Origin: an uncultured Candidatus Saccharibacteria bacterium
GTDB lineage: Bacteria > Patescibacteriota > Minisyncoccia > Phycocordibacterales > CSBR16-119
Direction of reading: 5' to 3'
Length of the DNA: 64,000 nucleotides
Assembly (NCBI GenBank): GCA_964557535.1
Contig: CAZLAD010000003.1
Span: 89,671-153,670 of the forward strand
Shown one piece after another: positions 4,486 to 61,464 of this stretch. Numbering within the stretch: position 1 is the first letter of the stretch; every line of letters starts with the position of its first letter. The notes beneath the pieces are model-generated. The model was not told the origin of the DNA and searched no databases. It saw nothing but the letters and a program-made list of their open reading frames with translations. The translations under genes and the position numbers were made by a program.

Positions 4486-7400
4486 ATGCTTAATTTATCC
4501 CTAAAAAGGACCATATTCGTGAGGCTTTTTGTAATGGCCTTTTTAGTACTATTTGTTTTCTCTCATCACAAAGACGCAATACTCCTGTTGGCAGCATCAC
4601 CAACGGTAACAACTAGTGCAGCTTCCTCTGTTGCTAAAACAACCGCAACATTAAACGGAAGTATTTCCGATAACGGGGGAGAAAATGTCACAGAAGTTGG
4701 GTTTGAGTACGGACTCTCGGCAAGTTATGGTTCATCCACAACGACAACCAGTTCTTATACGTACAATTCTCACTTTGGTTCATCTGGTTCAGGGGACGGA
4801 CAGTTTAGTAGTCCCAATGATATCGAAATCGATTCTTTTGGGAATATTTTTGTAGTTGATAATGTAAACAATCGTATCCAAAAGTTTAATTCATCCGGAG
4901 TGTACGTCTCCCAGTTTGGTTCATCTGGTTCCGGCGACGGACAATTTAATCTAATAGGAGGCTTGGTAATTGATTCTTCTGACAATGTTTATGTTACAGA
5001 TTTTAATAATCACCGCGTTCAAAAGTTTAATTCATCCGGAGTGTACGTATCCCAGTTTGGTTCATCTGGTTCCGGCAACGGACAATTTAATCAACCTTTC
5101 GGGATAGAAATTGATTCTCTTGGAGACATATATGTTGCTGATTTTAATAATGACCGCATCCAAAAGTTTAATTCATCTGGAGTGTACGTCTCCCAGTTTG
5201 GTTCATCTGGTTCCGGCGACGGACAATTTAATTCTCCGACAGATCTTGTTTTTGATTCGTCTGGAAATATCTATGTTACCGACACGGGGAACAATCGCGT
5301 TCAAAAGTTTAATTCATCCGGAGTGTACGTCTCCCAGTTTGGTTCATCTGGTTCCGGCGACGGACAATTTAATTCTCCGACAGATCTTGTTTTTGATTCG
5401 TCTGGAAATATCTATGTTACCGACACGGGGAACAATCGCGTTCAAAAGTTTAATTCATCCGGAGTGTACGTCTCCCAGTTTGGTTCATCTGGTTTAGGTA
5501 ACGGGCAATTTAGTCAACCAACAGGTATAAAACTTGATTCGTCTGGAAATATTTACGTTTCTGAATTAACTGGCGGAAAACGTGTTCAAAAATTTAATTT
5601 ACGAATCGACCCAACTCAAATCACTGGTCTTACGTGTGGGACGACGTATCATTTCCGTGCCTATGCCGAAAATGCAGATGGAACGTCGTACGGAGATGAC
5701 ACAACCTTTACGACATTGACCTGTGAACCACCAGAAGTTGACACGGTCAGTGCGACAAGCGTCTCCCAAACAACAGCCACATTAAATGGCCTCTATGTCG
5801 ACATGCCGGTTGTGCCTGGACTTACTAGGGGTTTTCAGTACGGTCCTACAACTAGTTATGGTCAATCTGTTTCTGAAAATGGCAACGAATATGTCTCCCA
5901 GTTTGGTTCATCTGGTTCCGGTAATGGCCAATTTAATGCGCCCCAAAGTCTAGTTATTGGATCTTCGGGGGCTATATATGTTGCTGACACAGGGAATAAC
6001 CGCGTTCAAAAATTTGATTCGAGTGGAAATTGGATTCTCAATATTACAGGTAACAGTGGGGCATTTAGCTCTCCTTCGAGCGTCTATGTTGATGCTAGTG
6101 AAAATGTCTATGTCTCTGACACGGGGAACAACCGCGTTCAAAAATTTGATTCGAGTGGGAATTTTCTATTAGAAATCGGTACCGGACTTTTTGGAGCAAC
6201 TTTTACTGTGGCGGTAGATGCAAGTGGAAATATCTACGTTGCCGATGTTGATGCCAACAGAATTGCCAAGTTTGATTCTTCCGGAAATTATCCATCTGAT
6301 TTTGCTTCCGGAGAAGTGTCGGTGCCGTATTCGATAGATTTTGATTCTAGTGGTAACGTCTATGTTGCTGACGCTGGTTTTACTTCTATTCGAGTTTTTA
6401 ATTCTGCGGGGACACTTATGACTGATTTGGCTACCGGGCAGTTTGGTTCGATTTTTTATGCGGATGTTGATAGTCATGATCATCTATATGTTGTTGATCA
6501 AGATAACGTCAGGATTTTGAAATACAATACTTCTGGTACACTTCTGTACGAACTTGGAGGAGTAAGCGGTACGGGTAACGGAGAGCTTTCTTTGCCTTAT
6601 GGTGTTACTGCAGATTCCAGTGATAACATCTATGTGGCCGATTCTGGCAATCATCGTATTCAAAAATTTAGTTTAGATTTTTCCCTCCCGATTTCTTCTT
6701 TAGGATGCAGTGACACGTATCACTACCGTGCATTTGCGACCAATGCCGATGGTACTGGATACGGGGAGGATATGATTTTCACCGCAGGTAATTGTCCTCC
6801 AACGGGTGGCGGAGGTGACAACGATGGTTGTACAGATCCAACAGCTGATAATTATGACCCCGATGCTGAGAATGATGATGGTTCGTGTGAATTTTGGGGA
6901 TGTATGGATCGCGATGCAACAAACTTTGATCCAACCGCGAATGTCCCCGTCAATGATTACTGTATCTATACCCCCGGCGCATTTCCCGGTTGTACTGACA
7001 TTCTTGCGACGAATCATGATCCAAACGCAACAGTTGATGATGGATCTTGTCTGTATGGAGTTTTTGGTTGCATGGACACAACGGCAACAAATTATAATTC
7101 AAGCGCAGTGTACAGTGATGGGTCTTGTGAATATGACGGTGGTCCAATTACGACACTCGGTTGTATGGATTCCGGTGCGCTAAACTTTAATCCTTCTGCA
7201 AATGTTGACGATGGGTCTTGTGATTTTCCAGACCCACTCGTATATGGCTGTACAGATGTAAGTGCATCCAATTTCAATCCATCTGCAAATGAAGACAATG
7301 GCTCATGTTCGTATATCAATCCTGATAATCCAGGAATTGGTCAAACTATCTCGCACATTTCTCAATTTATCGGAAATTTACCAGAAGTCGTAACTATTCC

Positions 7401-23595: not shown

Positions 23596-23649
23596 GTGAG
23601 ATGCCCCGTTCGCGGGGCTTTCACGTTTATGCTAGAATTGCGCCAGCTC

Positions 23650-23728
23650 TCCCGCGAGTGTAGCGGTCGCTTCCGGGATAATTGCTTATGTCTTTTATTA
23701 TTAAAGACCGCGACATATCACTAACGGG
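23650..23728 (+). promoter_or_regulatory. Partial E-family leader (E5): 3' half only (tagcggt..agaccgcgac..atatcactaacggg), ending at the glyA ATG
   Basis: Matches the 3' halves of E1 and E4; no matching 5' arm found. Confidence 0.35.
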
Positions 23729-25063
23729 ATGAAAAAATCCTACATAGAAAATCAGGACAAAGAAATCTACCGAGCTATCAAAGGCGAAGAGAAGCGCGAG
23801 GCCGAGGGACTCGAGCTTATTCCATCTGAAAATTATGTCTCACAAGCCGTGCTTGAGGCAAACGGTTCGGTGTTTACCAACAAATATTCCGAGGGCTATC
23901 CAAGCAAGCGTTATTATGGCGGTCAAGATTTTACTGATGTTGTCGAAAATTTAGCTATCAAACGGGCGTGTAAACTTTTCAAATGCAAATTTGCCAATGT
24001 CCAACCGCTTTCTGGTGCGCCAGCAAACATGGCCGTGTACGCGGCACTTCTTGAACCAGGCGACACGGTGCTTGGGATGGATCTTTCTCATGGCGGACAT
24101 TTGACCCATGGACATCCGGTAACTTTCCCAGCCAAAGTTTTCAAATTTGTTCGCTATAAAATGAAAAACATCGAGACGGGCGAAATTGATTATGCTGAAC
24201 TGCGCAAAGTTGCTCTTACCGAAAAACCAAAAATAATTCTCGCTGGATTTTCGGCATATCCGCGAAATCTAGACTACAAGAAATTCGTTTCGATTGCGCG
24301 CGAAGTTGGCGCTATCACTGTTGCGGACATGGCGCACATTGCTGGGCTTATTGCAGGAGGCGCCCTCGCGAACCCTTTTGACGCTGGATTTGACGTCATC
24401 ACTACCACGACTCACAAGACTCTACGCGGTCCGCGCGGTGGCATGATTCTCGTTCGTGATAGCGAGGAAATAATTGCGAAAATTAACAAAGCTGTTTTTC
24501 CAGGACTTCAGGGAGGGCCTCATATGAACGTCATCTCGGCCAAAGCCGTGGCATTTGGTGAAGCGCTGAAGCCGTCGTTTAAAAAATATGCCAAGCAAGT
24601 TTTGAAAAATGCCAAGGCGATGGAAAAAGTTTTCAAACGCGAAAAGATCCGCATGATTGGCGGGGGGACTGACAATCATTTGATTCTTGCTGACGTTTTT
24701 GGCTCCCTCGGCGTCACAGGTAAAGAAGCCCAGACCGTGCTCGATGAAGTTGGTATAACTTTGAATATGAATGCAATTGCCGATGATACGCGAAAGCCAC
24801 TCGACCCTTCGGGTATCAGATTCGGAACCCCAGCTATTACAACTCGTGGATTCAAGGAAAAAGATTGTGCACGTGTTGCCGAAATTATGATTGAAGTTTT
24901 ACGCGATTTTGCTTATAAAAAGATAAACCCCCACACCAAGTTTTCACATGCGCAAAAAAAATCTTTGAAGGGTAATCAAAAACTTGGTGTAGGGGTAAAA
25001 GAAAAAGCTAAAAAAGAAATCCAAAAAATGGCCAAAAAATTCCCAATTCCAAAAAAGTTCTAA
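23729..25063 (+). CDS. glyA: Serine hydroxymethyltransferase
   Basis: Conserved SHMT sequence incl. TTTTHKTLRGPRGG. Confidence 0.92.
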   Translation: MKKSYIENQDKEIYRAIKGEEKREAEGLELIPSENYVSQAVLEANGSVFTNKYSEGYPSKRYYGGQDFTDVVENLAIKRACKLFKCKFANVQPLSGAPANMAVYAALLEPGDTVLGMDLSHGGHLTHGHPVTFPAKVFKFVRYKMKNIETGEIDYAELRKVALTEKPKIILAGFSAYPRNLDYKKFVSIAREVGAITVADMAHIAGLIAGGALANPFDAGFDVITTTTHKTLRGPRGGMILVRDSEEIIAKINKAVFPGLQGGPHMNVISAKAVAFGEALKPSFKKYAKQVLKNAKAMEKVFKREKIRMIGGGTDNHLILADVFGSLGVTGKEAQTVLDEVGITLNMNAIADDTRKPLDPSGIRFGTPAITTRGFKEKDCARVAEIMIEVLRDFAYKKINPHTKFSHAQKKSLKGNQKLGVGVKEKAKKEIQKMAKKFPIPKKF

Positions 25064-29639: not shown

Positions 29640-32600
29640 ATGGAAAAAGATGTAGAAGCTCCGAAAAAGTCTGACGCCGCTTTGAAAGAAGAGGCGGTTC
29701 TTAAATTCTGGACGGAAAATAAAATTTTTGAGAAAACTTTGGAAAAGGAGGCTCCCATGGGCGAATTCGTTTTCTTCGAAGGTCCGCCGACAGCGAACGC
29801 GAAGCCCGCACTTCACCACCTCGAAGCTCGTGCATTCAAAGACGTTATTCCTCGTTACAAAACGATGCAGGGATATCGTGTACCGCGTCGCGGAGGATGG
29901 GATACGCACGGGCTACCAGTAGAACTTCAAATCGAGAAAAAGCTCGGACTTAACTCCAAAAAAGCTATCGAAGAATACGGCATCGAGAAATTTAACGCCG
30001 AGTGTAAGCAAAGTGTTTTTGAATATATCAAAGATTGGGAAGATTTTACTGACCGAATTGGTTATTGGGTAGACAAGAAAAATGCCTACTTCACTTTCAA
30101 CAATTCCTATATCGAATCGCTTTGGAATGTTCTCGCCGAAGTTGAGAAAAAAGATTTGCTCTACAAAGATTATCGAATCGTGCCATGGTGTTCACGTTGC
30201 GGAACACCACTCGCGTCGCACGAACTTGCGCAAGGTTATGAAGACGTAAAAGATCTTTCGATTTTTGTGAAGTTCCCGATCAAAGGATTCGACAAGGCTT
30301 ATTTTGTGGCTTGGACGACAACGCCGTGGACATTGCCAGGCAATGTCGCGCTCGCTGTTGGCAAAGACATCATTTATGTCGAGGCAAAAGTTGGCGAAGA
30401 AATTCTCGTCGTTGCCAAAGAACGTCTTTCCGTCATCACTGCACCCTATGAAATAGTCGCTGAACACAAAGGATCGGAAATGGTCGGTATGGAATACGCA
30501 CCTTTGTATGATTTCATCAAACCAAACGACAAATCTCACAAAGTTTATGCGGCGGATTTTGTCACAACCGAAGACGGAACGGGAATCGTTCACATCGCGC
30601 CGATGTATGGCCAAGATGACTTTGAGCTTGGTACGAAGGCCGGACTTCCAAAAGAGCATGTCGTCGGACTCGACGGTAAATTTTTGCTAGACACAGGATT
30701 TTTCTCTGGCCGATTTGCGATGGAAAAAGACGAAACAGGCAAACCAACGCTTGCCATCGACGTAATTCGCGATCTGCAGGAACGTGGACTTTTCTTCGAT
30801 AAGAAAAATTACGAACACACATATCCGCACTGCTGGCGCTGTAAAACTCCGCTCATCTACTACGCGCGCGATTCTTGGTACATCAAGATGGAATCTTTGC
30901 GCGATGAGTTGGTACGAGAAAACGAGAAAATAAATTGGGAGCCGGATCACATCAAAGAGGGCCGATTTGGCGAATGGCTAAAAAATATTCGCGATTGGGC
31001 GATCTCGCGCGAGCGATATTGGGGCACGCCACTTCCGATTTGGATGGCGGAGGATGGCGAGAGAATCGTGGTTGATTCGATTGAAACACTCAAAAAATAT
31101 ACGAAAAAATCCGGAAATAAATATTTTGTGATAAGACACGGTCAAGGAGAGCAAAATGTCATTGATGTCAGGTCTTCAAATCCAGACGCACCATATCATC
31201 TAACGGAGAAAGGGAGAGAAGAAGTTCATGCTTCAGCTCTTGAATTAAAAGGAAAAGGAATTACGAAAATTATTTGTTCACCATTTATTCGCACTAAGGA
31301 AACTGCAGAAATTATTGCAGAAGTTTTGGGATTTGCTAAAGAAAATATTGTTATTGAATCTCGAATTCGCGAATATGAACACGGGATTTTTGACGGAAAG
31401 ACCAGTAAAGAGTTTAACGATTGGCGCAACAGTGTAAATGCCAGTTTTGATACGGAAGTTCCTGGCGGAGAAAGTTTGAAGGAAGCAAAGATTCGCTTTG
31501 CTGGTTTCTTCTATGATTTGGAAAAGAACTACGCGAACGAAAATATTCTTATTGTTTCTCATGGGGTTTGTCACGAAGTAATGTCGTCGATTGTTGAAGG
31601 TTGGAGTGATAAAGAAACTTGGGACAATTGGAAGGAAAAAATTGTTTGGACGGGTGGCTGGAAACAATACGATTTTATCCCTCTTCCACACAATCAAAAT
31701 TTCGAACTCGATTTGCACCGCCCATTTATCGATGACGTTGTTTTGGAGCGTGATGGCAAAACTTTCCGACGTGTCAAAGAAGTCATGGACGTATGGTTTG
31801 ATTCTGGCGCCATGCCATTTGCCCAGGTTCACTATCCATTCGAAGGACAGAAGGGAGGCTTGTTTAAGAAAGATAAATTGCCATTCCCGGCTGACTTTAT
31901 CTCCGAAGCTGTCGATCAAACTCGCGGATGGTTCTATACGCTTCATGCCGTGGGTGTCCTCATGGGTCGCGGGCGGGCGTACAAAAACTGCATCTGTCTT
32001 GGGCACATTCTCGATGCACAGGGTAAGAAAATGTCTAAGTCTATCGGCAATATCGTGAATCCTTGGGAAATGATGGACAAATATGGCGTCGATACTTTGC
32101 GTCTCTGGATGTATTCGGTGAATCAGCCGGGTGATTCTAAAAACTTTGATGAGAAAACTGTCGCCGAACTTCGAAACAAAGTTTTTAATTTGTTCTACAA
32201 CGTTCTCGCATTTTACGAACTTTATCGCGATGAAAGTTTAGAAACCCACTTGGGGGTCCAACCCCCAAGTGGTAACGTTCTCGATATTTGGATCTTGGCG
32301 CGATTTAACGAACTTGCAAATTCTATGACTGAAAGTTTGGATAATTACAAACTCTTGGAGCCAGTTCGCGCACTCCGAGATTTTATCGATGACCTCTCGA
32401 CTTGGTATTTGCGACGCTCACGCGATCGACTCAAGGACGGTGATGCGGAGGCAAAGCAGACTTTGTATTACGTTCTCAAAAATACGGCCAAGCTCATGGC
32501 CCCGTTCGCGCCATTCGCGGCCGAAGACATTTGGCAGAAATTGAAAACGGCGGACGACGTCGAAAGTATTCACTTGGCAGATTGGCCGAAAGCAGGGAAA

Positions 32601-33029
32601 GTTGATGAAAAGGTTTTGAATGAAATGGAAACGGTACGTAATCTTTGTACGAGCGGAAATATGATTCGCAAGGAAATTGCAATTCCGATCAAACAACCGC
32701 TTGCGACATTTTTCGTGCCAAATGTTTTGGATAGCTATGTCGACATCATCAAAGAAGAATTGAACGTCAAAGAAGTAAAACAGGGAAGTGAAATAGCTTT
32801 CGACAAAACTATTACTCCAGAACTAAAACGCGAAGGAGATTTCCGAGAATTCTTGCGAAGCGTTCAGGGCTTGCGTAAAGACTCTAATCTTTTGCCGAAC
32901 GAACTCGTGACACTCGTCGTACCAGCATCAAACAAAGAATTGATTGTCGGATTCGAAGAAGAACTTAAAAAGACGGCCGGATTGAAAGAAATTAAATTTG
33001 AAGGAGAAGAAATTAAAATAGAAAAATAA
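29640..33029 (+). CDS. ileS: Isoleucyl-tRNA synthetase with an in-frame ~190-aa histidine-phosphatase (PGAM-like) domain inserted (~31105-31690) between the WAISRERYWGTPLPIW segment and the DVWFDSG/KMSKS region
   Basis: IleRS motifs PPTANAKPALHH (degenerate HIGH), WAISRERYWGTPLPIW, GKKMSKSIGN; insert contains RHGQGEQN, CSPFIRTKETA and IVSHGV. Confidence 0.8.
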   Translation: MEKDVEAPKKSDAALKEEAVLKFWTENKIFEKTLEKEAPMGEFVFFEGPPTANAKPALHHLEARAFKDVIPRYKTMQGYRVPRRGGWDTHGLPVELQIEKKLGLNSKKAIEEYGIEKFNAECKQSVFEYIKDWEDFTDRIGYWVDKKNAYFTFNNSYIESLWNVLAEVEKKDLLYKDYRIVPWCSRCGTPLASHELAQGYEDVKDLSIFVKFPIKGFDKAYFVAWTTTPWTLPGNVALAVGKDIIYVEAKVGEEILVVAKERLSVITAPYEIVAEHKGSEMVGMEYAPLYDFIKPNDKSHKVYAADFVTTEDGTGIVHIAPMYGQDDFELGTKAGLPKEHVVGLDGKFLLDTGFFSGRFAMEKDETGKPTLAIDVIRDLQERGLFFDKKNYEHTYPHCWRCKTPLIYYARDSWYIKMESLRDELVRENEKINWEPDHIKEGRFGEWLKNIRDWAISRERYWGTPLPIWMAEDGERIVVDSIETLKKYTKKSGNKYFVIRHGQGEQNVIDVRSSNPDAPYHLTEKGREEVHASALELKGKGITKIICSPFIRTKETAEIIAEVLGFAKENIVIESRIREYEHGIFDGKTSKEFNDWRNSVNASFDTEVPGGESLKEAKIRFAGFFYDLEKNYANENILIVSHGVCHEVMSSIVEGWSDKETWDNWKEKIVWTGGWKQYDFIPLPHNQNFELDLHRPFIDDVVLERDGKTFRRVKEVMDVWFDSGAMPFAQVHYPFEGQKGGLFKKDKLPFPADFISEAVDQTRGWFYTLHAVGVLMGRGRAYKNCICLGHILDAQGKKMSKSIGNIVNPWEMMDKYGVDTLRLWMYSVNQPGDSKNFDEKTVAELRNKVFNLFYNVLAFYELYRDESLETHLGVQPPSGNVLDIWILARFNELANSMTESLDNYKLLEPVRALRDFIDDLSTWYLRRSRDRLKDGDAEAKQTLYYVLKNTAKLMAPFAPFAAEDIWQKLKTADDVESIHLADWPKAGKVDEKVLNEMETVRNLCTSGNMIRKEIAIPIKQPLATFFVPNVLDSYVDIIKEELNVKEVKQGSEIAFDKTITPELKREGDFREFLRSVQGLRKDSNLLPNELVTLVVPASNKELIVGFEEELKKTAGLKEIKFEGEEIKIEK

Positions 33030-34173: not shown

Positions 34174-34227
34174 TCTTTTCTCGATTTACGACTTACAACT
34201 TACGACTTCCTGCGTTATAATTAGACC

Positions 34228-38537: not shown

Positions 38538-40025
38538 ATGAAAAAACCTGTTTACATCACGACAACTTTGCCTTACGTTAATTCTGATCCACATGTTGGA
38601 TTTGCTATGGAAATTATTCGAGCCGATGCATTGGCTCGCTACTACAAACTTTCCGGACACGAAGTATTTTTTAACACTGGTACCGACGAACATGGTCAAA
38701 AACTTTTGACTGATGCCACCAGGGCTGGAAAAGATGTAAAAGAATACGTTGATCATTATGCTGAGAAATTCCGTGGTCTTAAAGATTTGCTTGGCATATC
38801 AGATGACGTGCATTTTATTCGTACAACTGACGAACATCACGTGTTGGCCGCCCAAGAAATGTGGCGCCGGGTCAAAGAAAACGGTTTTATTTACAAAAAA
38901 AATTACCAGACCAAATATTGTGTGGGGTGCGAGCTAGAAAAAACAGATTCAGAACTCGTGGATGGTAAATGTCCGATTCATCCGAATAAAGAAATTGAAC
39001 TTCGCGACGAAGAGAATTATTTCTTCGCACTTTCAAAGCTTGAGAAAGAGCTTAAAGATTTGTACGACAATAAACCTGAGCTTGTCATCCCAGATTTTCG
39101 ATTTAACGAAATGAAAGCATTTCTAGAACGCGGTCTTCAGGATTTCTCGATCTCGCGTCCAGCAGCCAAAATGTCTTGGGGCGTGCCTGTGCCAGATGAT
39201 GCCGAACACGTCATGTATGTGTGGTTTGACGCGCTTACAAACTATATTTCCACGCTCGGTTGGCCAGAAGATGCGACGGGGGATTACCAGAAGTTCTGGG
39301 AAGAGGGCCTCAAAATTCAATACTGTGGCAAGGACAACGTTCGCCAGCAATCCATGATGTGGCAGGCGATACTTCTCGCGGCAAAACTTCCAAATACGGA
39401 CAACATTGTTATCAACGGCTTTATCAACTCCGGCGGACAGAAAATGTCTAAATCTTTGGGTAATGTTATCAGTCCGTATGACCTCATCAAAGACTACGAA
39501 GCCGTGGCGGGGGATTTGTCATCGGATGTCTTGCGATATTACTTGCTCCGACACGTAAATCCGTTTGAGGATTCGGATATGACACTCGAGACGATCAGGG
39601 AGGCTTATCAAGCAAATTTGGCCAATGGTATCGGAAATCTTGTCTCAAGAATCATGAAGATGGCTACCACTTACGGAGTTGAGAAGCCATATACATGGAC
39701 AGAGACCAATGAACACTATTTTACTTTAAGTGGGGAAATTGAGAGTCATCTCCACGAATACGATATGAGTAGAATCATGGATAAAATTATGTTGTATGCC
39801 ACGTCTATAGATTTCTCCATAGCTGAAACAAAACCGTTCAGTTTGATTAAGACCGATCCAGAAAAAGCTAAAGAGTTGGTTGCGATTCTTTTGGCAAATT
39901 TAAATCAAATGGCAATATGGCTAGAACCTTTCTTGCCAAAAACTTCAATATCTATACAAAAACTAATAAAAGAAAATAAAATGCCAGAAAAACCACTCTT
40001 TAATCGTCTAGAAGCTAAAAGCTAA
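38538..40025 (+). CDS. metG: Methionyl-tRNA synthetase (short form)
   Basis: PYVNSDPHVGFA; GGQKMSKSLGN. Confidence 0.88.
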   Translation: MKKPVYITTTLPYVNSDPHVGFAMEIIRADALARYYKLSGHEVFFNTGTDEHGQKLLTDATRAGKDVKEYVDHYAEKFRGLKDLLGISDDVHFIRTTDEHHVLAAQEMWRRVKENGFIYKKNYQTKYCVGCELEKTDSELVDGKCPIHPNKEIELRDEENYFFALSKLEKELKDLYDNKPELVIPDFRFNEMKAFLERGLQDFSISRPAAKMSWGVPVPDDAEHVMYVWFDALTNYISTLGWPEDATGDYQKFWEEGLKIQYCGKDNVRQQSMMWQAILLAAKLPNTDNIVINGFINSGGQKMSKSLGNVISPYDLIKDYEAVAGDLSSDVLRYYLLRHVNPFEDSDMTLETIREAYQANLANGIGNLVSRIMKMATTYGVEKPYTWTETNEHYFTLSGEIESHLHEYDMSRIMDKIMLYATSIDFSIAETKPFSLIKTDPEKAKELVAILLANLNQMAIWLEPFLPKTSISIQKLIKENKMPEKPLFNRLEAKS

Positions 40026-40037
40026 CAGCTATAAGCT

Positions 40038-40823
40038 ATGCGCTACTTTGACATCCATTCTCATCTAAACCTTTCACCTCTATCAGAAAGGAAAGACGAA
40101 ATAATTAAAACTCTTGAGGAAAAAGAAACCGGTACTATAACTGTCGGGACTGATTTTGAAACATCGGCGCAGGCCGTGGCTATTGCTATTGAGAGCAATA
40201 ATCTTTTTGCGTCTGTTGGGCTTCATCCGACCGAAGTCATGGAAAAACATTTTGATTTGGATGAATTTAGAAATCTTGCAGGTAAAAATAAAGTCGTTGC
40301 TATTGGTGAGTGTGGACTCGACTATTTCCGAATTGACGCGAGCGATGAATCAACCAAAAATTTACAAAAAGAAATTTTTAATAAGCAGATTGATTTGGCG
40401 GTAGAGAAAAATATACCGCTTATTCTTCATGTTCGTCCACAGAAAGGAACAATGGATGCGTATGAAGACGTTTTAGAGATTCTTGAATCTCGAGCGAGTG
40501 AGAACATTCGTGGCGACGTACATTTTTTTGTTGGCTCACCTGAGATCGCTCATAGATTTATCAAGCTCGGATTTTATTTGTCATTTACTGGAGTTGTAAC
40601 TTTTGCCCGTGACTACGATGAAGTTATTCGCCAAACTCTGATTGATCGAATTCTTACTGAAACAGATGCGCCTTTTGTCGCCCCAATCCCACATCGTGGG
40701 GAAGTCTGCGAACCTTGGATGGTACAAGAAGTCATTAAGAAAATTGCTGAAATCAAAGGTCTAGATCTAGAAGAAACCCGTCTCCAAATCCTCCAAAACG
40801 CCAAAACTCTTTTCGATATCTAA
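40038..40823 (+). CDS. tatD: TatD-family metal-dependent hydrolase
   Basis: FDIHSHLN; conserved His/Glu/Asp ligands. Confidence 0.75.
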   Translation: MRYFDIHSHLNLSPLSERKDEIIKTLEEKETGTITVGTDFETSAQAVAIAIESNNLFASVGLHPTEVMEKHFDLDEFRNLAGKNKVVAIGECGLDYFRIDASDESTKNLQKEIFNKQIDLAVEKNIPLILHVRPQKGTMDAYEDVLEILESRASENIRGDVHFFVGSPEIAHRFIKLGFYLSFTGVVTFARDYDEVIRQTLIDRILTETDAPFVAPIPHRGEVCEPWMVQEVIKKIAEIKGLDLEETRLQILQNAKTLFDI

Positions 40824-41285: not shown

Positions 41286-41465
41286 TTTTAGGGTTTACAT
41301 TTTTATATTAATCTGGTAATATCTCCAAAGCGTTTCGTTCGACTCCTTTGAAACATAAGGCGTCGCAAGGTCCGATACGATGCGTTTTTTTATTACCAGT
41401 TTTTAGCCATTAGCTATTAGTTTTTAGCTAACGGCCAAAGGCTAACAGCTAATAGCTAACTAAAC

Positions 41466-45974: not shown

Positions 45975-46028
45975 AGGCCTGGGCAGAACTGTTTCTATCT
46001 CTTGATTTCTGCCTGCATGCTACAATAT

Positions 46029-46154
46029 TCCTATGGAATCCCGTTAGAGATGTTTCGTTTGGGATTTTTAATAAACATTGCAAAATCATGGTCGTGAATT
46101 ACTCACAAAACAATAATCAAGGTACGCAAACTAAAGTTTGCTATCTCTAACGGG
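46029..46154 (+). promoter_or_regulatory. E-family structured 5' leader, copy E2 (arm tcccgttagagat ... atctctaacggga; core atggtcgtgaattactcac..cgcaaact-aaa-gtttgc)
   Basis: Perfect 13-bp long-range stem ending at the ATG at 46155; hairpin covaries with E3. Confidence 0.6.
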
Positions 46155-48893
46155 ATGGAATTTGGTGGAGGAATGGAGGGGCCGAAGTTTAAAACTCCTG
46201 AAGAGGAGCTCGCCTTTTTGCGTGAGAAAGTTGCAACGCACGAGAAAGAATTAGCTAGTCAAAATATTGAAAAATCCCGCGAGGCCATCACACACGAAGC
46301 TTTGTCGGCTTACAAGAAAGCCGACACCGAAGAAGTTCTACACCCAGATTTTCAAACGCCGGAGCATGAGTCCGAAGCCGTCGCGCTTGCCCTAAAGCCC
46401 GAAGAACACGACGAGCAGATTTCCGAACTCTATGGACTACTTCTCGAAAAGGGAATCAAAAACACTTTGGATATTGTCGCCCGTATGAACAATCCCCACC
46501 TCGAAGATGACTTTCATCGTTTCCTCGTCCAGTTTTTGCACACCTCCGGTAGTATTCCAGGCCTCAAAGAAACCGCGCCAGAGTGGAAGTCTTTGAACTT
46601 GTCTTTGTTTGAGGTTACGCTTCCGCCACTTGAGGGCGAGAACAAAAGCTTCAAAGATTTCTTGACCGCCATGGAGCAATTTTTCGCCGGCATGCAGACG
46701 ATTGCGTCCGGTGAACAAAATAGTTACAAACAGTATTTCACGATCGAGATTGCTGTTTCGCATGATTCTCCAGAAATTGTCTTGTATGTTTCGATTCCCA
46801 AAGAACGTAAAACGTTGCTCGAAAAACAAATTCTTTCTTTTTACAAAAATGCCCGCGTGACGGAAGTGACGAACGATTACAATGTTTTTGTCGATCAGGG
46901 TGCGACGGCCGGAGCATATGCGACACTTTCTGATCACGACGTTTTTCCGCTCAAAACTCATGACGAGTTTGATCATGATCCGATGGCGGCCATCCTAAAC
47001 GCTTTTTCCAAACTCGACAAGACGACAGAAGGCGCGGCTTTGCAGTTCGTCATCATGCCGGCCGGTGATGCCTATATCAAAAAATTTGCAAAAATTCTCG
47101 ACAAGGTAAAGCATGGCGAGAAGTTGAAGCACGCAATGGATGAATTCCACGACATCAAGCAAGAATTCAAAAATTTCGGTACCTCGCTTTTTAGAAGTAC
47201 AAAAACCCTGGAAAAACAAAAAGCCGAAGAAACCAAAGACATTGATGATACTGCTGTCGAAAATATTTCAGAGAAAATCAAATCAACCATCGTTTTGACA
47301 AATGTTCGCGTCGTCGCATCGTCGCCGTCAGCTGGTCGCACTTCCGAAATTATTTCAAATATCGAATCATCTTTTTCGCAGTTTACTCGAGCCAATTCAA
47401 ATAGCGTTCGATTTCACAAAGTAGGGGACAAGGATCGGGAAAAATTCTTCCACGCATTTTCTTTTCGTATGCCTGATGGACACGATGTCATGCCACTTAA
47501 CTTCAAAGAGCTTGCGACCTTGGTGCACTTCCCGGTTGGCACCACTGGTTCGCCCGAGCTTCGCGAATCCAAAGCGGGCGTCGCGGCTGCGCCGATCAAT
47601 ATGGGCACAAGCGGTATCAAAATCGGTATCAACTCATTTCGTGGTGTCGACACCGATGCTTATCTAAAAGAGGTTGATCGCATGCGACATTTCTATGTCA
47701 TCGGCCAGACGGGAACTGGTAAGACTGGAATTCTCATGAACATGATTCGCCAAGACATTGAAAATGGCGATGGCGTTTGTTATATCGATCCGCACGGCAC
47801 CGACATCCAGAAAATTCTTTCTTTTATTCCGAAAAACAGAATTGATGACGTTATCTATTTCGATCCGGCTTCGACGGCCAGACCAATGGCGCTCAACATG
47901 CTCGAGTTTGATCCAGAGCGTCCAGAGCAGAAAACTCTCGTCATTAACGAGCTTCTGGGGATTTTTAGTCAGCTTTTTGACATGAAGACGGCCGGCGGAC
48001 CTTTGTTCGAACAGTATTTCAAAAATTCGGCCGGACTTGTCATGGGTGATCCAGATTCGGGTAACACAATCCTCGAAATCGGTCGTGTGCTTTCGGACAA
48101 AAAATTCCGCGACATGAAGCTTGCGCGTTGTACAAATCCAATCATTACGCAGTTTTGGAAAAATGCCGAAGCTACGACAGGCGAACAAGGACTAGAGAAC
48201 TTTGTGCCGTACATCACTTCCAAATTCGACACGTTTATCTCAAACGAAATCATGCGACCAATCATCGCCCAAGAAAAATCGAGTTTTAATTTCCGCGACA
48301 TTCTTGATAACAAGAAAATTTTCTTGGCCAATCTTTCAAAGGGTCGTTTGGGTGACATCAATGCGAACCTTCTCGGCCTTATTCTCGTCGGCAAGATTCA
48401 GATGGCAGCGCTTTCTCGAGCAGATTCTGCCAGTATGAATTTCCCGCCGTTTTATCTCTACATCGACGAGTTCCAAAATTTCACCACACCATCGATTTCT
48501 TCAATTCTCTCCGAGGCGCGAAAATACAAACTTTCGCTAAATGTCGCACACCAATATCTCTCACAACTTTCGGACGATATCAAAAACGCCGTTTTGGGAA
48601 ACGTCGGCTCGATGGGGATTTTCCGTATCAGTTCTGAAGATGCCGAAGTTTTGGTCAAACGTCTGGAGCCAACATTTACTGTCCAAGACATCTTAAAACT
48701 CGATAATCGAAATGCGTATATCTCGATGCTTGTTGATGGTGTGCCGGTCAAGCCATTTAATATTCGTACGCAGGATTTACCGGCGGGTAATCCGGAAATT
48801 GTCGAATCACTCAAGGAACTTTCATTCCTCAAATTCGGTCGCCCGCGTGATGAAGTGGAGAAAGAGGTGATGGACAAGTTTATGAAGATTTAA
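46155..48893 (+). CDS. Soluble P-loop ATPase of the TraD/TrwB/VirD4 (type IV coupling protein)-like / FtsK-HerA superfamily, with a ~480-aa N-terminal domain of unknown function
   Basis: HFYVIGQTGTGKTG..YIDPHG (Walker A plus the DP-G box), FYLYIDEFQNF (Walker B), LNVAHQYLSQL. Confidence 0.55.
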   Translation: MEFGGGMEGPKFKTPEEELAFLREKVATHEKELASQNIEKSREAITHEALSAYKKADTEEVLHPDFQTPEHESEAVALALKPEEHDEQISELYGLLLEKGIKNTLDIVARMNNPHLEDDFHRFLVQFLHTSGSIPGLKETAPEWKSLNLSLFEVTLPPLEGENKSFKDFLTAMEQFFAGMQTIASGEQNSYKQYFTIEIAVSHDSPEIVLYVSIPKERKTLLEKQILSFYKNARVTEVTNDYNVFVDQGATAGAYATLSDHDVFPLKTHDEFDHDPMAAILNAFSKLDKTTEGAALQFVIMPAGDAYIKKFAKILDKVKHGEKLKHAMDEFHDIKQEFKNFGTSLFRSTKTLEKQKAEETKDIDDTAVENISEKIKSTIVLTNVRVVASSPSAGRTSEIISNIESSFSQFTRANSNSVRFHKVGDKDREKFFHAFSFRMPDGHDVMPLNFKELATLVHFPVGTTGSPELRESKAGVAAAPINMGTSGIKIGINSFRGVDTDAYLKEVDRMRHFYVIGQTGTGKTGILMNMIRQDIENGDGVCYIDPHGTDIQKILSFIPKNRIDDVIYFDPASTARPMALNMLEFDPERPEQKTLVINELLGIFSQLFDMKTAGGPLFEQYFKNSAGLVMGDPDSGNTILEIGRVLSDKKFRDMKLARCTNPIITQFWKNAEATTGEQGLENFVPYITSKFDTFISNEIMRPIIAQEKSSFNFRDILDNKKIFLANLSKGRLGDINANLLGLILVGKIQMAALSRADSASMNFPPFYLYIDEFQNFTTPSISSILSEARKYKLSLNVAHQYLSQLSDDIKNAVLGNVGSMGIFRISSEDAEVLVKRLEPTFTVQDILKLDNRNAYISMLVDGVPVKPFNIRTQDLPAGNPEIVESLKELSFLKFGRPRDEVEKEVMDKFMKI

Positions 48894-48931
48894 AACACTA
48901 CACTGTTGTGCAGTAAGGGCTAATTAATATT

Positions 48932-48966
48932 AATCTTGACAAAAAGCTTAATAAAGGTTAATCTAT
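48932..48966 (+). promoter_or_regulatory. Sigma70-like promoter (TTGACA, 17 nt, TAATCT) upstream of ORF 49002
   Basis: Read from the sequence. Confidence 0.35.
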
Positions 48967-49001
48967 TTTTGTAACGTTCGTCAAACTAAAAACTTAAACA
49001 A

Positions 49002-49316
49002 ATGGCAGACGAAGGATTTGCTCGAGTAAAAGACCTGTGGCAAAAATGCCACGATAATCACAAGATCTACTCGGTAGATCTACCCGCGGGCGTTGTGATA
49101 TGCGGTGGCGCTGATAAGGACGGGGAGAATAGGATTTTGTCTGTTTTTTGTTACTTATCAAAAGACATTCTGCACTATGAGGAGTGGTACGTGATTCGTC
49201 CTAATGGATCTGTTGATGCTCGGAGAATTTCTCCTCTTGGCAAGAACGAGATTTTGAAGAACGATCTTCATCACGATTGGTTCGGTCAAGAAGTACTCGA
49301 GGACGAAGACGATTGA
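49002..49316 (+). CDS. Hypothetical small protein (GC-rich)
   Basis: ORF plus downstream hairpin aatacccg..cgggtatt. Confidence 0.4.
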   Translation: MADEGFARVKDLWQKCHDNHKIYSVDLPAGVVICGGADKDGENRILSVFCYLSKDILHYEEWYVIRPNGSVDARRISPLGKNEILKNDLHHDWFGQEVLEDEDD

Positions 49317-49436
49317 CCATTTTGGTCTTGAATACCCGGTAATGAAGTGTAACGCTTTTATCGGGTATTGTTGTTTTTGTATTTGATTTTCTTACCCCAA
49401 ATGCTAAACTACGGTCATTAAAATTTGTAAATACAT

Positions 49437-49913
49437 ATGAACACTCATCCAAAAAATGAAAAAGTCCTTATTATCATGAAGCCTGACGCTATCCAGAGAA
49501 ATTTGGTCGGCGAGATCATCGGCCGATTTGAGAAAAAGGGTCTAAAGATCAATGGTCTGAAGATGTTGTCGCTCGAAGATGTCTTACTCGAAGATCATTA
49601 TGCTCACATCAAAGACAAGCCATTTTTTGCCGGCATAAAATCTTTTATGAAATCTTCTCCGGTTGTTGTCATGGCGCTTTCCGGTATTGGCGCGGTTGAT
49701 GCTGTGCGTATTATCGTCGGACCAACCAAAGCTTTCGAAGCCCCTGGTGGAACTATTCGTGGCGATTTGGCGATGTCTATCCAATCAAACGTCGTGCACG
49801 CTTCTGATTCAGTAGAAAATGGTATTGCCGAAGTCGCACGATTCTTCAAAGATGAAGAATTGTTCTCATACCAGAAAATCGATCAGGCTCTTGTGTACGC
49901 TGACAATTTCTAA
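49437..49913 (+). CDS. ndk: Nucleoside diphosphate kinase
   Basis: NVVHASDS active-site motif. Confidence 0.88.
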   Translation: MNTHPKNEKVLIIMKPDAIQRNLVGEIIGRFEKKGLKINGLKMLSLEDVLLEDHYAHIKDKPFFAGIKSFMKSSPVVVMALSGIGAVDAVRIIVGPTKAFEAPGGTIRGDLAMSIQSNVVHASDSVENGIAEVARFFKDEELFSYQKIDQALVYADNF

Positions 49914-49929
49914 GACAGATAAATCCTTT

Positions 49930-50340
49930 GGATTTATTTTGAGAACCTCTCGGTTCTCAACGCTACGCTGCTCTCCTCCACGGGGAAAACTACAGTTTTA
50001 CACGACCCCCTTTCGTAGCGTTGAATAATTCTGAGGCAACCCAGAATTATTCAACGCCCTTAAACATTTGTCTATATTGCAACCGAAATAACCGTGCCTT
50101 ATAATTAAGGCACGGTTATTTCAAAGTATTATCTAGAACATTAGTCCTAGGGGAGTGAGAAGTTGGCGCTGGCCGTGGCCTTCGCCACATCACACCCACG
50201 TATAATTTAGCTAGGATAATAACTTGGATAGCCGTAAAGAGAAACTTTATGCCTAAACCCTTCAGCGGGTTTTTCTTTTTATATTAAGTATTGTTTGGGC
50301 CGTAGGTACTGAGCTCGTCGAAGTATTTTTCTTTTTTTCT
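49930..50340. other. ORF-free region packed with perfect hairpins (gagaacc-tctc-ggttctc; caacgctacg...cgtagcgttg; ttgaataattctg-aggcaac-ccagaattattcaa; 17-bp gaaataaccgtgcctta-taat-taaggcacggttatttc; aaaccc-ttcagc-gggttt)
   Basis: Inverted repeats read directly; candidate structured ncRNA or terminator cluster. Confidence 0.4.
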
Positions 50341-50357
50341 GGTAGAATAGATATATG

Positions 50358-50476
50358 AATCCCGATAGTGATGCTCTGTGGAGATTGTTGGGATAATTCA
50401 TAAAGATATGGTCGTGAATTACTTACGTAACAATAAATTAGATACGCAAATCTAAAGATTTGCTATCACTATTGGG
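50358..50476 (+). promoter_or_regulatory. E-family structured 5' leader, copy E3 (arm cccgatagtgat ... atcactattggg; core atggtcgtgaattacttacgtaacaataaattagatacgcaaatc-taaa-gatttgc)
   Basis: Ends at the ATG at 50477. Confidence 0.6.
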
Positions 50477-50911
50477 ATGAATTTTAGGGCACGTATCTTC
50501 AGGCGTTTTGCATATCTGCTTTTTGGATTGTTTATCGTAAATAGTCTCGCAAATTATTTTTATTGGTATCAAAGTTTTCGTTATTTCGACAAGATTATGC
50601 ATTTCACCGGCGGTGTCGTTGGAACCCTTTTTCTCGTATGGTTTTTCCACGAAAAATATTTGAAATTTCTGAGAGAAAAAAAATTAAAAAAGCTTCTTAT
50701 TTTTAATACACTGGTTTTTTTAGGTGTGGCTGGTTTGTGGGAAGTTATGGAATTTTCAATTCAAGATATTTTTGACGCCGGACAGTTACTCGCCAGTCCC
50801 ATGGACTCTGTAGATGATTTGTTTTTTGGCACATTAGGAAGCTTGGTCGGTATTACATATTTTCTCAACAAAGTTAGAAATCTAAAAATCTTTAAACATG
50901 ATGGATTCTGA
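50477..50911 (+). CDS. Small 4-TM membrane protein of unknown function
   Basis: Hydrophobic helices; flanked by E3 and E4. Confidence 0.5.
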   Translation: MNFRARIFRRFAYLLFGLFIVNSLANYFYWYQSFRYFDKIMHFTGGVVGTLFLVWFFHEKYLKFLREKKLKKLLIFNTLVFLGVAGLWEVMEFSIQDIFDAGQLLASPMDSVDDLFFGTLGSLVGITYFLNKVRNLKIFKHDGF

Positions 50912-51025
50912 TAGTGATGTTTTAGTTAAAAATTTTTATTTTAGGTTACAATAAGATCGTCGTGAATTACTTACAGGATAATAAATTAGATACGCAAATC
51001 TTAAAGATTTGCTATCACTAACGGA
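50904..51025 (+). promoter_or_regulatory. E-family structured 5' leader, copy E4. Its 5' arm overlaps the stop codon of the upstream gene; ends at the ATG at 51026
   Basis: About 90 percent identical to the E3 core. Confidence 0.6.
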
Positions 51026-52405
51026 ATGGAAACCAAGAAATTAAAATTGACATTTGCAGGAGGGACGGGCTGGGTGACTGGCGCGAACTTTTTGCTCGAG
51101 AAACCCGAAGGATTTAAGTTACTTGTCGATTGTGGAATGATCCAGGGCGAGAAAATGGCCGAACACGACAATTGGAACCCTTTTCCTTATGATCCGGCAC
51201 AAGTCGACGTGCTTATCATAAGTCACGCGCACGAGGATCACATTGGTCGAATCCCGAAACTCGTCTACGAGGGATTTAAAGGCAAAATCATAGGCACGGC
51301 AGCGACGGCTGATTTGACGGCTATTATGCTTGAGGACACCGCACATATATTGGCCAATTCTCGAAGCGGAGCGGAATTTAATTTAAATAAAATATATTCA
51401 CCCGAAATACTGCATAGGATAAAGGGTATGTGGGAAACACACGAGTATCACGAGAAATTTACTTTGGGTGGCGACATGGAGGTTGTGTTTAAAGACGCGG
51501 GACACATCTTGGGCTCGTGCATGACGGAGATTACGTACAATGGCTCGAAAATTGTTTTTACCGGAGATTTGGGCAACTCGCCGTCGCCACTTTTAAATGA
51601 CACCGAAGACATCACGGGAGCGCGGTACCTTGTCATGGAATCAGTCTATGGTGACAGAAATCACGAACAGCGCGCGGAGCGAGAAGAAAATCTTAAAAAA
51701 ATCATCCTTGAAACTTACAAGAAAAAAGGAGTTTTGATGGTGCCGATTTTTTCTCTCGAACGCACGCAGGAATTTCTCTACGAACTCAATAATTTTGTCG
51801 AGTCGAAGCAGATTCCGGTAATGAAAATTTTCCTCGACTCGCCGCTCGCTATTCGAATTACGGATATTTTCAAGAAGCATTTAAATCTTCTCAAAGAAAC
51901 CGTGCGCATGCAGATCAGTCAGGGTGATAACATTTTCCAATTCCCAGGACTTCGCGAGACCGAAGTCACACAGGATTCGATAAATATTTTAAAAATTCCT
52001 GGTCCGAAAATTATCATGGCAGGATCCGGGATGTCGACCGGTGGTAGAATCCTCCATCACGAGAAAAATTATCTCTCTGATCCAAATGCCACACTGCTTC
52101 TCACTGGTTACCAGGTCCCGGGAACACTCGGACGAATTCTCCAAGAAGGACGAAATGAAGTTATGATTTTAAACGAGCGTGTAAAAGTAAAAGCCAAGAT
52201 TCAAATGATTCAGGGTTATTCGGGGCACAAGGATTCGTTTCACTTGGTGAAATTTGTCGGAACAGCCAAAGACACCCTCGAAAAAGTTTTCACTGTCATG
52301 GGCGAGACAAGTTCGGCGATGTTTCTAGCACAAAAGATTCGCGACAACCTCGGGGTTACGGCAATTGCGCCGGAGATGAATCAGAGTGTAGAATTGGAGT
52401 TTTAA
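51026..52405 (+). CDS. MBL-fold beta-CASP family RNA-metabolising hydrolase (RNase J / CPSF-like)
   Basis: HAHEDHIG motif and beta-CASP region. Confidence 0.7.
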   Translation: METKKLKLTFAGGTGWVTGANFLLEKPEGFKLLVDCGMIQGEKMAEHDNWNPFPYDPAQVDVLIISHAHEDHIGRIPKLVYEGFKGKIIGTAATADLTAIMLEDTAHILANSRSGAEFNLNKIYSPEILHRIKGMWETHEYHEKFTLGGDMEVVFKDAGHILGSCMTEITYNGSKIVFTGDLGNSPSPLLNDTEDITGARYLVMESVYGDRNHEQRAEREENLKKIILETYKKKGVLMVPIFSLERTQEFLYELNNFVESKQIPVMKIFLDSPLAIRITDIFKKHLNLLKETVRMQISQGDNIFQFPGLRETEVTQDSINILKIPGPKIIMAGSGMSTGGRILHHEKNYLSDPNATLLLTGYQVPGTLGRILQEGRNEVMILNERVKVKAKIQMIQGYSGHKDSFHLVKFVGTAKDTLEKVFTVMGETSSAMFLAQKIRDNLGVTAIAPEMNQSVELEF

Positions 52406-60777: not shown

Positions 60778-61464
60778 CTATGGTGTGTAGCAACATCGAA
60801 AGCGGGCAGCTACCAGTGCTGGATCTATGTGGGTACGTTCATTACATGTATTGCTCCCCCAAACCTGAACAGCCTCGTTTCCTCCGATGTCATCAGTCCA
60901 TTCCCAATTTCCGACCATGTCTTGAAGAGGGGCTGACGCATTGATGTTGTCGACTGTTAAGGTTGAGTTCCTGCAGGCATGGTGCCACTCACCCCAAGTA
61001 CAGAGCCTGGCACCGATACTCATGCATGTGTCGTTAGCGTCATATCCATCTGAAATCGTCCTCTCATTCACCTCAATGCAGTAATTCCTCCCCGGCACCC
61101 TTACAAATCCAGGAGGACATGTTAGGGCAGGCGGAGGATCAGTTGTGGCGAGCAATCTCACCCACTGGACGCCATCCCAGTAGTAATATCCCGGTGTGAC
61201 GTTTGTCGGTACTGTCCCGGCCGTAGCGGTATTGTAGACCAGGAGAGATGTTGCGGGAGCAACCACCGGAGCCGGGACGTTTGTCGCGGTGAGGGCGAGA
61301 CGCGGGATCAAAAGCCCCTTTTTGTCATTTGCTGGTAGAGCGTTTGCGTCGACATCTAGGAGTGCACTAGGGTTTGGTGCGCCACCATCAGGATTGATTC
61401 CGATGTTCTGAGTGTAGGCTTTGGTGCTCAGCACGAACAGGAGAAAGGAGAGCAAGGTTTTCAT
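60778..61464 (-). CDS. Secreted protein with a Bacteroidetes-style signal peptide, a conserved N-terminal domain (GLLIPRLALTATN...LLVYNTATAG...GYYYWDGVQWV) and a C-terminal Cys-rich lectin-like domain; GC-rich island
   Basis: MKTLLSFLLFVLSTKAYTQ; A/C-rich leader accacaaaaaccagcaacATG. Confidence 0.5.
   Translation of the reverse strand: MKTLLSFLLFVLSTKAYTQNIGINPDGGAPNPSALLDVDANALPANDKKGLLIPRLALTATNVPAPVVAPATSLLVYNTATAGTVPTNVTPGYYYWDGVQWVRLLATTDPPPALTCPPGFVRVPGRNYCIEVNERTISDGYDANDTCMSIGARLCTWGEWHHACRNSTLTVDNINASAPLQDMVGNWEWTDDIGGNEAVQVWGSNTCNERTHIDPALVAARFRCCYTP

Follow-up and report, generated by a model that had tools for sequence, protein, structure and literature searches.

Palindromic elements flush with start codons in a Candidatus Saccharibacteria contig, very probably copies of a mobile family that rebuilds the ATG

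The DNA analysed here, which we call the window, is a stretch of 64,000 nt from an uncultured Candidatus Saccharibacteria bacterium (contig CAZLAD010000003.1, assembly GCA_964557535.1), and contains five copies of a palindromic element (E1 to E5), each of which ends at the ATG of a real gene (Pfam). The genes encode SecE (with NusG next to it), SHMT, a DUF8128 ATPase, a DUF2238 membrane protein and a beta-CASP/RMMBL nuclease, and the copies amount to five per approximately 52 genes. These are the places where the original prediction had put conserved leaders of ~120 nt, and all five are confirmed. Measured from CCCG through CGGG, as for their coordinates below, the window copies are 78 to 119 nt long. 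The elements are on the + strand, as are the start codons, promoter boxes and short reading frames described with them, and "L" with a number labels a related or metagenome locus. The two ends of the element pair over 12-15 bp; in subtype B this terminal stem is joined by a bulge and an inner stem of 7 bp, in subtype A by a local hairpin.

E1 (17497-17603; subtype B, 107 nt) abuts the secE ATG at 17604, and has a 12-bp terminal stem, an ACCT bulge and then the 7-bp inner stem CGCGGTC/GACCGCG (minimum free energy (MFE) -44.6, z -6.9). The start codon occurs a second time directly on the 5' side of the element, a feature overlooked in the original prediction. In E1 this retained original start plus 3 nt reads GTGAAT (17491-17496), follows a Shine-Dalgarno (SD)-like GGGAGG 7 nt upstream, and opens an upstream open reading frame (uORF) of 20 codons (17491-17553). 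The secE-nusG unit also has a near-consensus promoter upstream of its SD and GTG (17421-17470, + strand; TTGACA-17-TATATT, 11/12), and a terminator-like hairpin with a T run (17456-17470) follows this promoter within 7 nt; the hairpin could act in attenuation, or could just terminate the preceding gene. E5 (23651-23728; subtype B, 78 nt, covariance-model score 34 bits) abuts the glyA ATG at 23729. It had been described as a partial copy, and is instead a full member of a short size class (77-82 nt), in which the 5' arm of this copy is degraded and its upstream ATG has disappeared (AGCTCT). Its extended -10 box TGcTAGAAT (23633-23638), a consensus match only, puts the predicted transcription start ~6 nt downstream, just 5' of the element.

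The other three copies are of subtype A. E2 (46040-46154; 115 nt) abuts the ATG of the DUF8128 ATPase gene at 46155, and its retained start ATGGAAT (46033-46039) duplicates the gene's ATGGAAT (46155-46161). The terminal stem is cccgttagagat/atctctaacggg, the internal hairpin is at 46126-46141, and the uORF ends after MESR. An extended -10 box (TACAAT with TGc, 46021-46026) is followed 6 nt further on by the retained start codon. E3 (50361-50476; 116 nt) abuts the DUF2238 ATG at 50477 and has the same arrangement: the -10 box (TAGAAT, extended by TGg, 50343-50348), 6 nt further on the retained start ATGAAT (50355-50360, a duplicate of 50477-50482), and a uORF of 13 codons (50355-50396). Its terminal stem includes one G.U pair, and its internal hairpin is at 50446-50463. 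Terminator-like hairpins end the preceding units before both E2 and E3 (for E3, at 50255-50272). The extended -10 boxes 6 nt upstream in E2, E3 and E5 imply that the element would be the 5' end of the mRNA, in agreement with its original description as a 5' leader element. E4 (50907-51025; 119 nt), with its internal hairpin at 50994-51012, lies within an operon and abuts the ATG of the beta-CASP RNase gene at 51026. Here the retained ATGGAT copy (50901-50906) is within the 3' end of the upstream gene, whose stop TGA (50909-50911) falls inside the 5' arm.

The start-codon copy and the start of the gene read ATGGAAT/ATGGAAT in E2, ATGAAT/ATGAAT in E3, GTGAAT/ATGAAA in E1 and ATGGAT/ATGGAA in E4. 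The long terminal stems fold as claimed (MFE -25 to -45 kcal/mol; z-scores against shuffles -2.1 to -6.9) and their pairs covary, and a covariance model on the terminal stem matches exactly these five copies in the window. E2, E3 and E4 indeed have a common core, GTCGTGAATTACTYAC, which is exact in all three and occurs nowhere else in the window, and they also have in common a hairpin near the 3' arm. For six subtype A copies, RNAalifold gives 25 pairs, 11 of them changed on both sides. The claim that the internal hairpin is kept by compensatory change stands, but not the example given for it: compared with E3 and E4, E2 has lost one whole base pair, and true compensatory substitutions are found in copies from other genomes.

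The organism belongs to the Paceibacteria (Patescibacteria), represented by a metagenome-assembled genome. Searching with its beta-CASP protein gave 65 related loci, in which the same start codons can be seen filled and empty. At the DUF8128 gene, the filled site of the window reads TACAAT-attcct-ATGGAAT-(115 nt)-ATGGAATTTGG, and the empty site of L003 (protein identity 91%) reads TACAAT-aattac-ATGGAATTTGG; L002 is likewise empty, and both have the same promoter directly before ATGGAATTT. This gene looks leaderless and is empty in approximately 28 of the 32 relatives examined, and the same codon is filled by other subtypes in L004, L014 and L045. The DUF2238 site is filled only in the window, and is empty in L002 (TAGAAT-N6-ATGAATTT), L004 and L005. 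The SSB gene is empty in the window, L002 and L005, and filled in L004 and L006, with ATGTAT on both sides. At the E4 site, L003 has an orthologous copy (6358-6474), from which E4 is separated by a C-G to U-A swap, and L002 has none. These differences in presence at orthologous start codons contradict the idea of copies that are fixed and orthologous everywhere. The empty E4 site of L002 (9985-10000) reads ...aaaaagcggg directly before ATGGAA; gcggg is similar to the element's terminal bases (a/tcggg), and could have been left behind as a scar when the element was lost imprecisely.

Beyond these relatives, metagenomes were scanned with a pattern of 23 nt taken from subtype B's 3' end, with the ATG excluded. 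This gave at least 124 matches at at least 120 loci, mainly from groundwater and lake samples, and the matches listed, together with copies found by their arms alone, make up a collection of 147 unique elements. More than 140 further copies come from Paceibacteria genomes and metagenomes. Viral contigs, scanned with two patterns, gave 0 matches. Directly 3' of the element is ATG (128) or GTG (10) in 138 of the 147 (94%), and 123 of the 147 open a reading frame that has at least 60 codons or runs off the contig. The downstream proteins are varied housekeeping proteins, for example SSB, NusB, MurG, aminoacyl-tRNA synthetases, ribosomal proteins, FtsW, FtsA, MreB, RecR and topoisomerase, with 128 Pfam families across 120 proteins. 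The ACCT-bulge side is toward the gene in approximately 121 of the 123 matches listed, L104 being one clear reversed copy. Sizes range from 77 to 221 nt with a mode of ~115, including short (~80 nt) and long (~190 nt) classes, and the only reading frame inside is the short, variable uORF; there is no transposase gene.

Within subfamilies, copies at unrelated genes have interiors that are 80-91% identical, compared with a background of 60 +/- 5%, which fits transposition. Tandem copies in L144 (36-271) and L183 (12625-12870), in which the pair shares one start-codon copy between its members, indicate that the same site is used repeatedly. In a segmental duplication of L045 (3884-4803), two near-identical element copies have the same flanks and the same first 13 downstream residues (MTPEYGALGKQFR), and the reading frame after the first copy has only 33 codons. 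L129 (13323-13460) and L166 contain a 66-nt relative with the same CCCGTTAGAGA arms and extra palindromic flanks (gggttgac ... gtcaaccc), in some cases not adjoining a start codon; it is possibly another subfamily.

The junctions suggest how the start codon comes to be doubled. The termini are T...A, and the conserved ends are 5'-(T)CCCG[T/A]TAG... and ...CTA[A/T]CGGG(A)-3' (end pair TCCCGTTAG... on the 5' side and ...CTAACGGGA on the 3' side). In 83 copies the left flank consists of a start codon and the two nucleotides N4N5, identical to N4N5 of the gene (AA, GA, AG, TA or GG), and then T/CCCG. The left duplication is one base longer in 5 copies and one shorter in 8, has a mismatch in 8, and approximately 27 copies (~20%) have no upstream start codon. 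Under a model with T...A termini, this corresponds to a duplication of 4 bp in 83 copies, of 3 or 5 bp in 13, and of none in ~27. In E1 and L179 the left codon is GTG and the right codon ATG, and the reverse, left ATG and right GTG, is found for C...G termini, which shows that the element provides the regenerated start codon's first base. As the last base of the element is A, the right junction restores ATG together with N4N5 of the gene. As read from these junctions, insertion duplicates ~4 bp, TGNR, in a target that reads A/TGNR, and the native promoter or leader, with the original start codon, stays at the left junction. The RAA that follows the ATG, previously taken for a conserved coding signal, reflects this duplication (ATG-N-R). 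In L079 (430-621), an element nested in the 5' inner stem of another has T...A termini and CGCG on both sides, a clean 4-bp duplication. Among the copies without a retained start, 12 of 27 have the stop of the preceding gene at the foot (TAA-T/CCCG, at -4) or in the 5' arm (TAG); E4 represents the class with the upstream gene's stop at the 5' foot. An insertion of IS200/IS605 type, without duplication, is rejected because the empty sites show a real duplication.

In 114 standard-length copies only the ends are conserved (CCCGTTAGaagCCGCGGTCgC ... GACCGCGACCTGctTCTAACGGG, ~21 nt), and the A-rich interior is unalignable across the family. The 5' inner stem, which the search pattern left free, is identical in 97 of 113 copies. 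Arm positions 8-10, free on both sides, occur in many variants and are complementary in 409 of 414 cells, and over 138 copies the 12-15-bp arms are complementary in ~97% of cells. Pairing extends into the start codon: the base before CCCG pairs with its A or G (T-A in 127 copies, C-G in 9), and at the helix foot both A and U of the codon take part in pairing (positions -1 and -2). In same-gene pairs with a third-codon-position identity of 54-70%, the 21-nt 5' end is 100% identical.

Taken together, we conclude that the five "leaders" are very probably copies of a non-autonomous palindromic mobile element, widespread in Paceibacteria, which rebuilds start codons and resembles a MITE (miniature inverted-repeat transposable element). 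Like MITEs, it is shorter than 300 bp without a transposase gene, has terminal inverted repeats, and is found at polymorphic sites and in many copies at unrelated sites. The original prediction had offered a mobile promoter or start-codon cassette as one explanation, and the start-codon cassette was essentially right; the mobile promoter is not supported, as the 3' arm has no -10 box at suitable spacing. Specifically, no TAnnnT hexamer could be read there at leaderless spacing for the downstream ATG, and a sigma-70 scan found nothing relevant on the + strand inside the elements. We found no described start-codon-specific, start-codon-rebuilding element in the literature searched or in Rfam.

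A second set of features concerns translation. From the retained start, the 5' arm codes for M-N/D-P-V-R-S-R-G-R..., and in 23 of 89 standard copies this frame crosses the element without meeting an internal stop. These open uORFs have 26-41 codons with unrelated middles, and 21 of the 23 end at the TAA of cTAAcgggATG, 4 nt before the ATG of the gene. The interior is stop-free in the TAA-ending frame in 33 of 76 copies, compared with 16 of 152 for the other two frames and with 9.3 +/- 2.9 for shuffled interiors (maximum 19 in 2000 trials). Element lengths that leave a remainder of 1 on division by 3, which put the old ATG in the TAA frame, are enriched (41:27:21). The ends, the orientation and one reading frame are under constraint. 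In addition, TAnnnT stands 5-9 nt before the retained start in 47% of copies, compared with 18% in a shifted control; this -10-like hexamer at leaderless spacing suggests that the mRNA of these units begins with the retained AUG, and that this AUG should be translated. An element-encoded N-terminal extension of the protein is rejected on account of its stop codons and a length that is not a multiple of 3.

Among other window genes, starts at e.g. 21680, 27477, 29640, 33589, 34228, 36116, 37475, 52505 and 61561 have an extended -10 box (TGnTAnAAT) 6-7 nt before ATG or GTG and no SD, and the organism thus probably uses leaderless starts widely. Other genes (8423, 19535, 25140, 45321, and 60778-61464 on the minus strand) are preceded by A/C-rich leaders that lack an SD, e.g. 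caaaaacccaaaacccaccatcATG.

We propose that insertion is tolerated, even in essential genes, because translation would be relayed across the element, so that the gene behind the hairpin stays translated. Recruited by the native signals of the gene, ribosomes would engage the old start codon, which lies at the hairpin's 5' foot and in about half of the copies would be a leaderless, 5'-terminal AUG; inside operons, ribosomes would reach the 5' foot by terminating the upstream gene there. The hairpin would hold both start sites adjacent, and two routes across it can be envisaged. In the first, the short reading frame would be translated through the element to the UAA 4 nt before the AUG, followed by reinitiation. 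In the second, ribosomes would unfold the 5' arm, or occupy the foot of the helix, and so free the juxtaposed AUG at the 3' foot. Stem, orientation and open frame would then be maintained by selection at the level of the host. Short reading frames across palindromic integron attC sites are known to relieve hairpin blocks through termination and reinitiation (PMC8876359). The relay on its own is a serious candidate that falls a little short of being probable in our judgement, while the account in which mobile element and relay are taken together is one that we moderately favour. More tentatively, this may be a family specialised for start codons, which separates the gene from its initiation signals, rebuilds the ATG, and is hidden by the relay, either as uORF reinitiation or as a prokaryotic shunt from AUG to AUG.

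Several observations weigh against this interpretation. The duplication is uneven (3-5 bp) and absent in ~20% of copies, and a simple staggered cut of 4 bp does not account for the left-junction class TAA-T/CCCG. A search of ~1.8 Mb (window plus loci) for arms 0.3-4 kb apart and for solo ends gave neither a transposase nor an autonomous partner with these ends; all such arm pairs and solo ends are separate small copies, contig ends or variants. A protein search with the uORF peptide, for a longer protein starting in the repeat, gave no candidate. The open uORF is kept by only about a quarter to 40% of copies and is not complete in any of the five in the window (E2, E3 and E1 stop early, as given above), so that reinitiation cannot be the sole route and only the arm-opening or juxtaposition variant applies to the window copies. 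Transitions in the 5' arm yield U.G (10) and A.C (11) equally, and the pairing can thus not be assigned to RNA rather than DNA. As the sample was chosen by an intact 3' end, fixed by the search, decayed copies away from start codons would escape it, and the start-codon specificity may partly be survivorship. The perfectly complementary arm variants could come from subfamily descent or hairpin-templated repair, and the same-gene copies may be independent insertions and not orthologues.

One rival is a purely selfish MITE that has no function in the RNA, for which a TGNR-preferring transposase scatters copies, only those that rebuild a start survive, the ends are transposase-binding repeats, and the downstream ATG is used alone. 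The inverted-repeat ends, target duplication, polymorphic sites, and nested and tandem copies all agree with it, and so do the conservation of the ends in sequence, beyond pairing, the lack of a G.U bias, and the bias of the sample to intact copies. We nevertheless consider it unlikely. For symmetric inverted repeats, the orientation bias of ~121:2 is unexpected; one frame, defined by the TAA beside the ATG, is depleted of stops; the stops of upstream genes are exactly at the 5' foot in several independent cases; and an AUG flush with a 12-20-bp helix, without SD and in essential genes, needs a means of access.

For a cis-regulatory RNA leader, in which the stem would mask the initiation region until temperature or a bound protein opens it for global translational control, the main reading of the original prediction, the probability is much lower still. 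The paired A and U of the start codon, the compensatory change that maintains the stems, the sequence-conserved ends, which could bind a protein, and the transcription of the element as the 5' end of leaderless units, as predicted from the -10 boxes, would suit such a leader. The orthologous genes of close relatives do without the element, which argues against a global control leader or regulon; moreover, the downstream genes have no common theme and differ among genomes, and the interior is unconserved. The stems are also far too stable for a thermometer: MFE values of -25 to -57 kcal/mol and near-perfect helices of 12-15 or 12+7 bp are unlike ROSE and fourU, and the LasI thermometer model scores 13 bits, compared with a threshold of 76. 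Rfam has no matching family at gathering/curated or at permissive thresholds. A metabolite riboswitch, already doubted in the original prediction because the downstream genes are unrelated, is rejected on the diversity of Pfam families given above, as there is no coherent gene set, no conserved ligand core in the interior and no Rfam match.

Direct translational bypass or shunting, in which the ribosome would depart from the retained AUG together with its fMet-tRNA and come down across the foot on the identical AUG, as in phage T4 gene 60, is highly improbable. An identical AUG-N-N flanks a compact hairpin in ~70% of copies, the helix sets the two AUGs side by side, and mobile insertions are hidden in this way in T4 gene 60 and in the byp elements of yeast mitochondria. 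However, the upstream AUG is lost in ~20% of copies, still before essential genes, target duplication accounts for the identity of N4N5, neither a nascent-peptide signal nor a stop right after the take-off site is present, and the open uORFs favour ordinary translation through the element. Equally little weight attaches to an RNA-processing cassette, from which RNase III or an RNase Z/J-like enzyme would free a leaderless mRNA at the regenerated AUG by cutting the helix foot: the organism clearly prefers leaderless starts, the 19-20-bp helices of subtype B are within the RNase III substrate range, and RNase III cuts the Correia elements of Neisseria, but its cuts fall within helices with a 2-nt stagger rather than flush at the 3' foot, the pairing takes in the A and U of the AUG, neither a ribozyme nor a known processing motif was detected, a tRNA/tmRNA scan found none and hence no tRNA-like processing signal, and the open reading frame is left unexplained.

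The mobile family that we favour has partial counterparts among known systems. The Correia elements or NEMIS (Neisseria miniature insertion sequences), which are MITEs, likewise are 100-150 bp long, form an inverted-repeat hairpin when transcribed, have a short duplication and adjoin genes in many copies; they are co-transcribed with neighbouring genes and can alter their expression. They differ in duplicating TA, in their varied intergenic positions and both orientations, and in being alike over their whole length, whereas the present family sits on start codons in one orientation, rebuilds the ATG with its own terminal A, and is conserved at its ends only. REPINs, built from repetitive extragenic palindromic (REP) sequences and moved by REP-associated tyrosine transposases (RAYT), share with it two inverted ends of ~20 nt, a variable spacer, a hairpin of ~100 nt and compensatory pairing; on this analogy, recognition by structure would explain both the covariation of the arms and the strand-specific orientation. 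Unlike it, REPINs are extragenic, often after genes, with no target duplication and a GTAG-type motif; no RAYT gene was seen, and no further test of the likeness was made. The IS1380 family and piggyBac-like elements may resemble it in their CCC...GGG ends and a 4-5-bp duplication; no transposase was found here.

Rickettsia palindromic elements (RPE) are mentioned in PMC2635572. It is generally known that RPEs, too, are palindromic mobile elements of a reduced genome which insert in genes without destroying them; they are translated in frame within the host protein, whereas the present element lies between two start-codon copies, outside the protein. In T4 gene 60, byp and the shunting of cauliflower mosaic virus (CaMV), an insertion is likewise silenced at translation and matching codons flank a structured gap, and in shunting of the CaMV type a short reading frame ends at the foot of a helix, beyond which the ribosome resumes. 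These systems act in elongation or in eukaryotic scanning, and here the step would be initiation; direct bypass is not needed to account for the data.

The attC site of integrons, at the 3' end of a mobile gene cassette, is defined by a 5' inverse core RYYYAAC and a 3' core GTTRRRY (PMC8876359). It resembles the present element in being palindromic, with conserved ends like GTTAG/CTAAC and a variable centre, directly before the next reading frame, and attC hairpins in mRNA block ribosomes (PMC8876359). The order of the core motifs is, however, reversed: attC reads 5'-..CTAAC ... GTTAG..-3' (PMC8876359), and the present element 5'-GTTAG ... CTAAC-3' on both strands. For this reason, and because the element inserts alone in syntenic core genes, an attC identity is rejected.

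Other features of the window are of separate interest. Tandem repeats of 7 or 14 nt (TAACCTA, CGACTTA, CTAAAAG, TAGCTAACAGCCAA) at 10887-10921, 34182-34208, 40008-40038 and 41425-41460 sit in intergenic leaders directly before the starts at 10926, 34228, 40038 and 41466. A class I aminoacyl-tRNA synthetase of Ile/Val/Leu type (29640-33029, + strand; 1129 aa) has a His_Phos_1 domain at residues 496-662, inserted between its tRNA-synt_1 and Anticodon_1 parts (Pfam). At 4867-5559 (+ strand), a tandem repeat with a period of 141 nt (4.9 copies, 84% matches) codes for the beta-propeller part, made of NHL repeats, in a surface-type protein of 1274 aa.

For annotation, the elements mean that gene callers may choose the wrong ATG or call spurious reading frames of 26-41 codons, and they are handy markers of strain-level insertion polymorphism. 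They also bear on leaderless and SD-less initiation in bacteria of the candidate phyla radiation, which to our knowledge cannot be grown alone and on whose translation almost nothing is known experimentally. If the relay is true, its mechanism would be without close bacterial precedent, and the element would be a natural portable device that couples a downstream start codon to an upstream one via a hairpin. If the start-codon-specialised family that we tentatively suggest is true, the 5'-terminal AUG of leaderless mRNAs would in these cases serve only as a ribosome entry site, and up to ~10% of genes in some candidate phyla radiation genomes would carry insertions with an "intron-like" silence that acts at initiation. 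This would be a new way for selfish DNA to live in the essential genes of tiny genomes, beside introns, inteins, in-frame palindromic elements and bypass elements.

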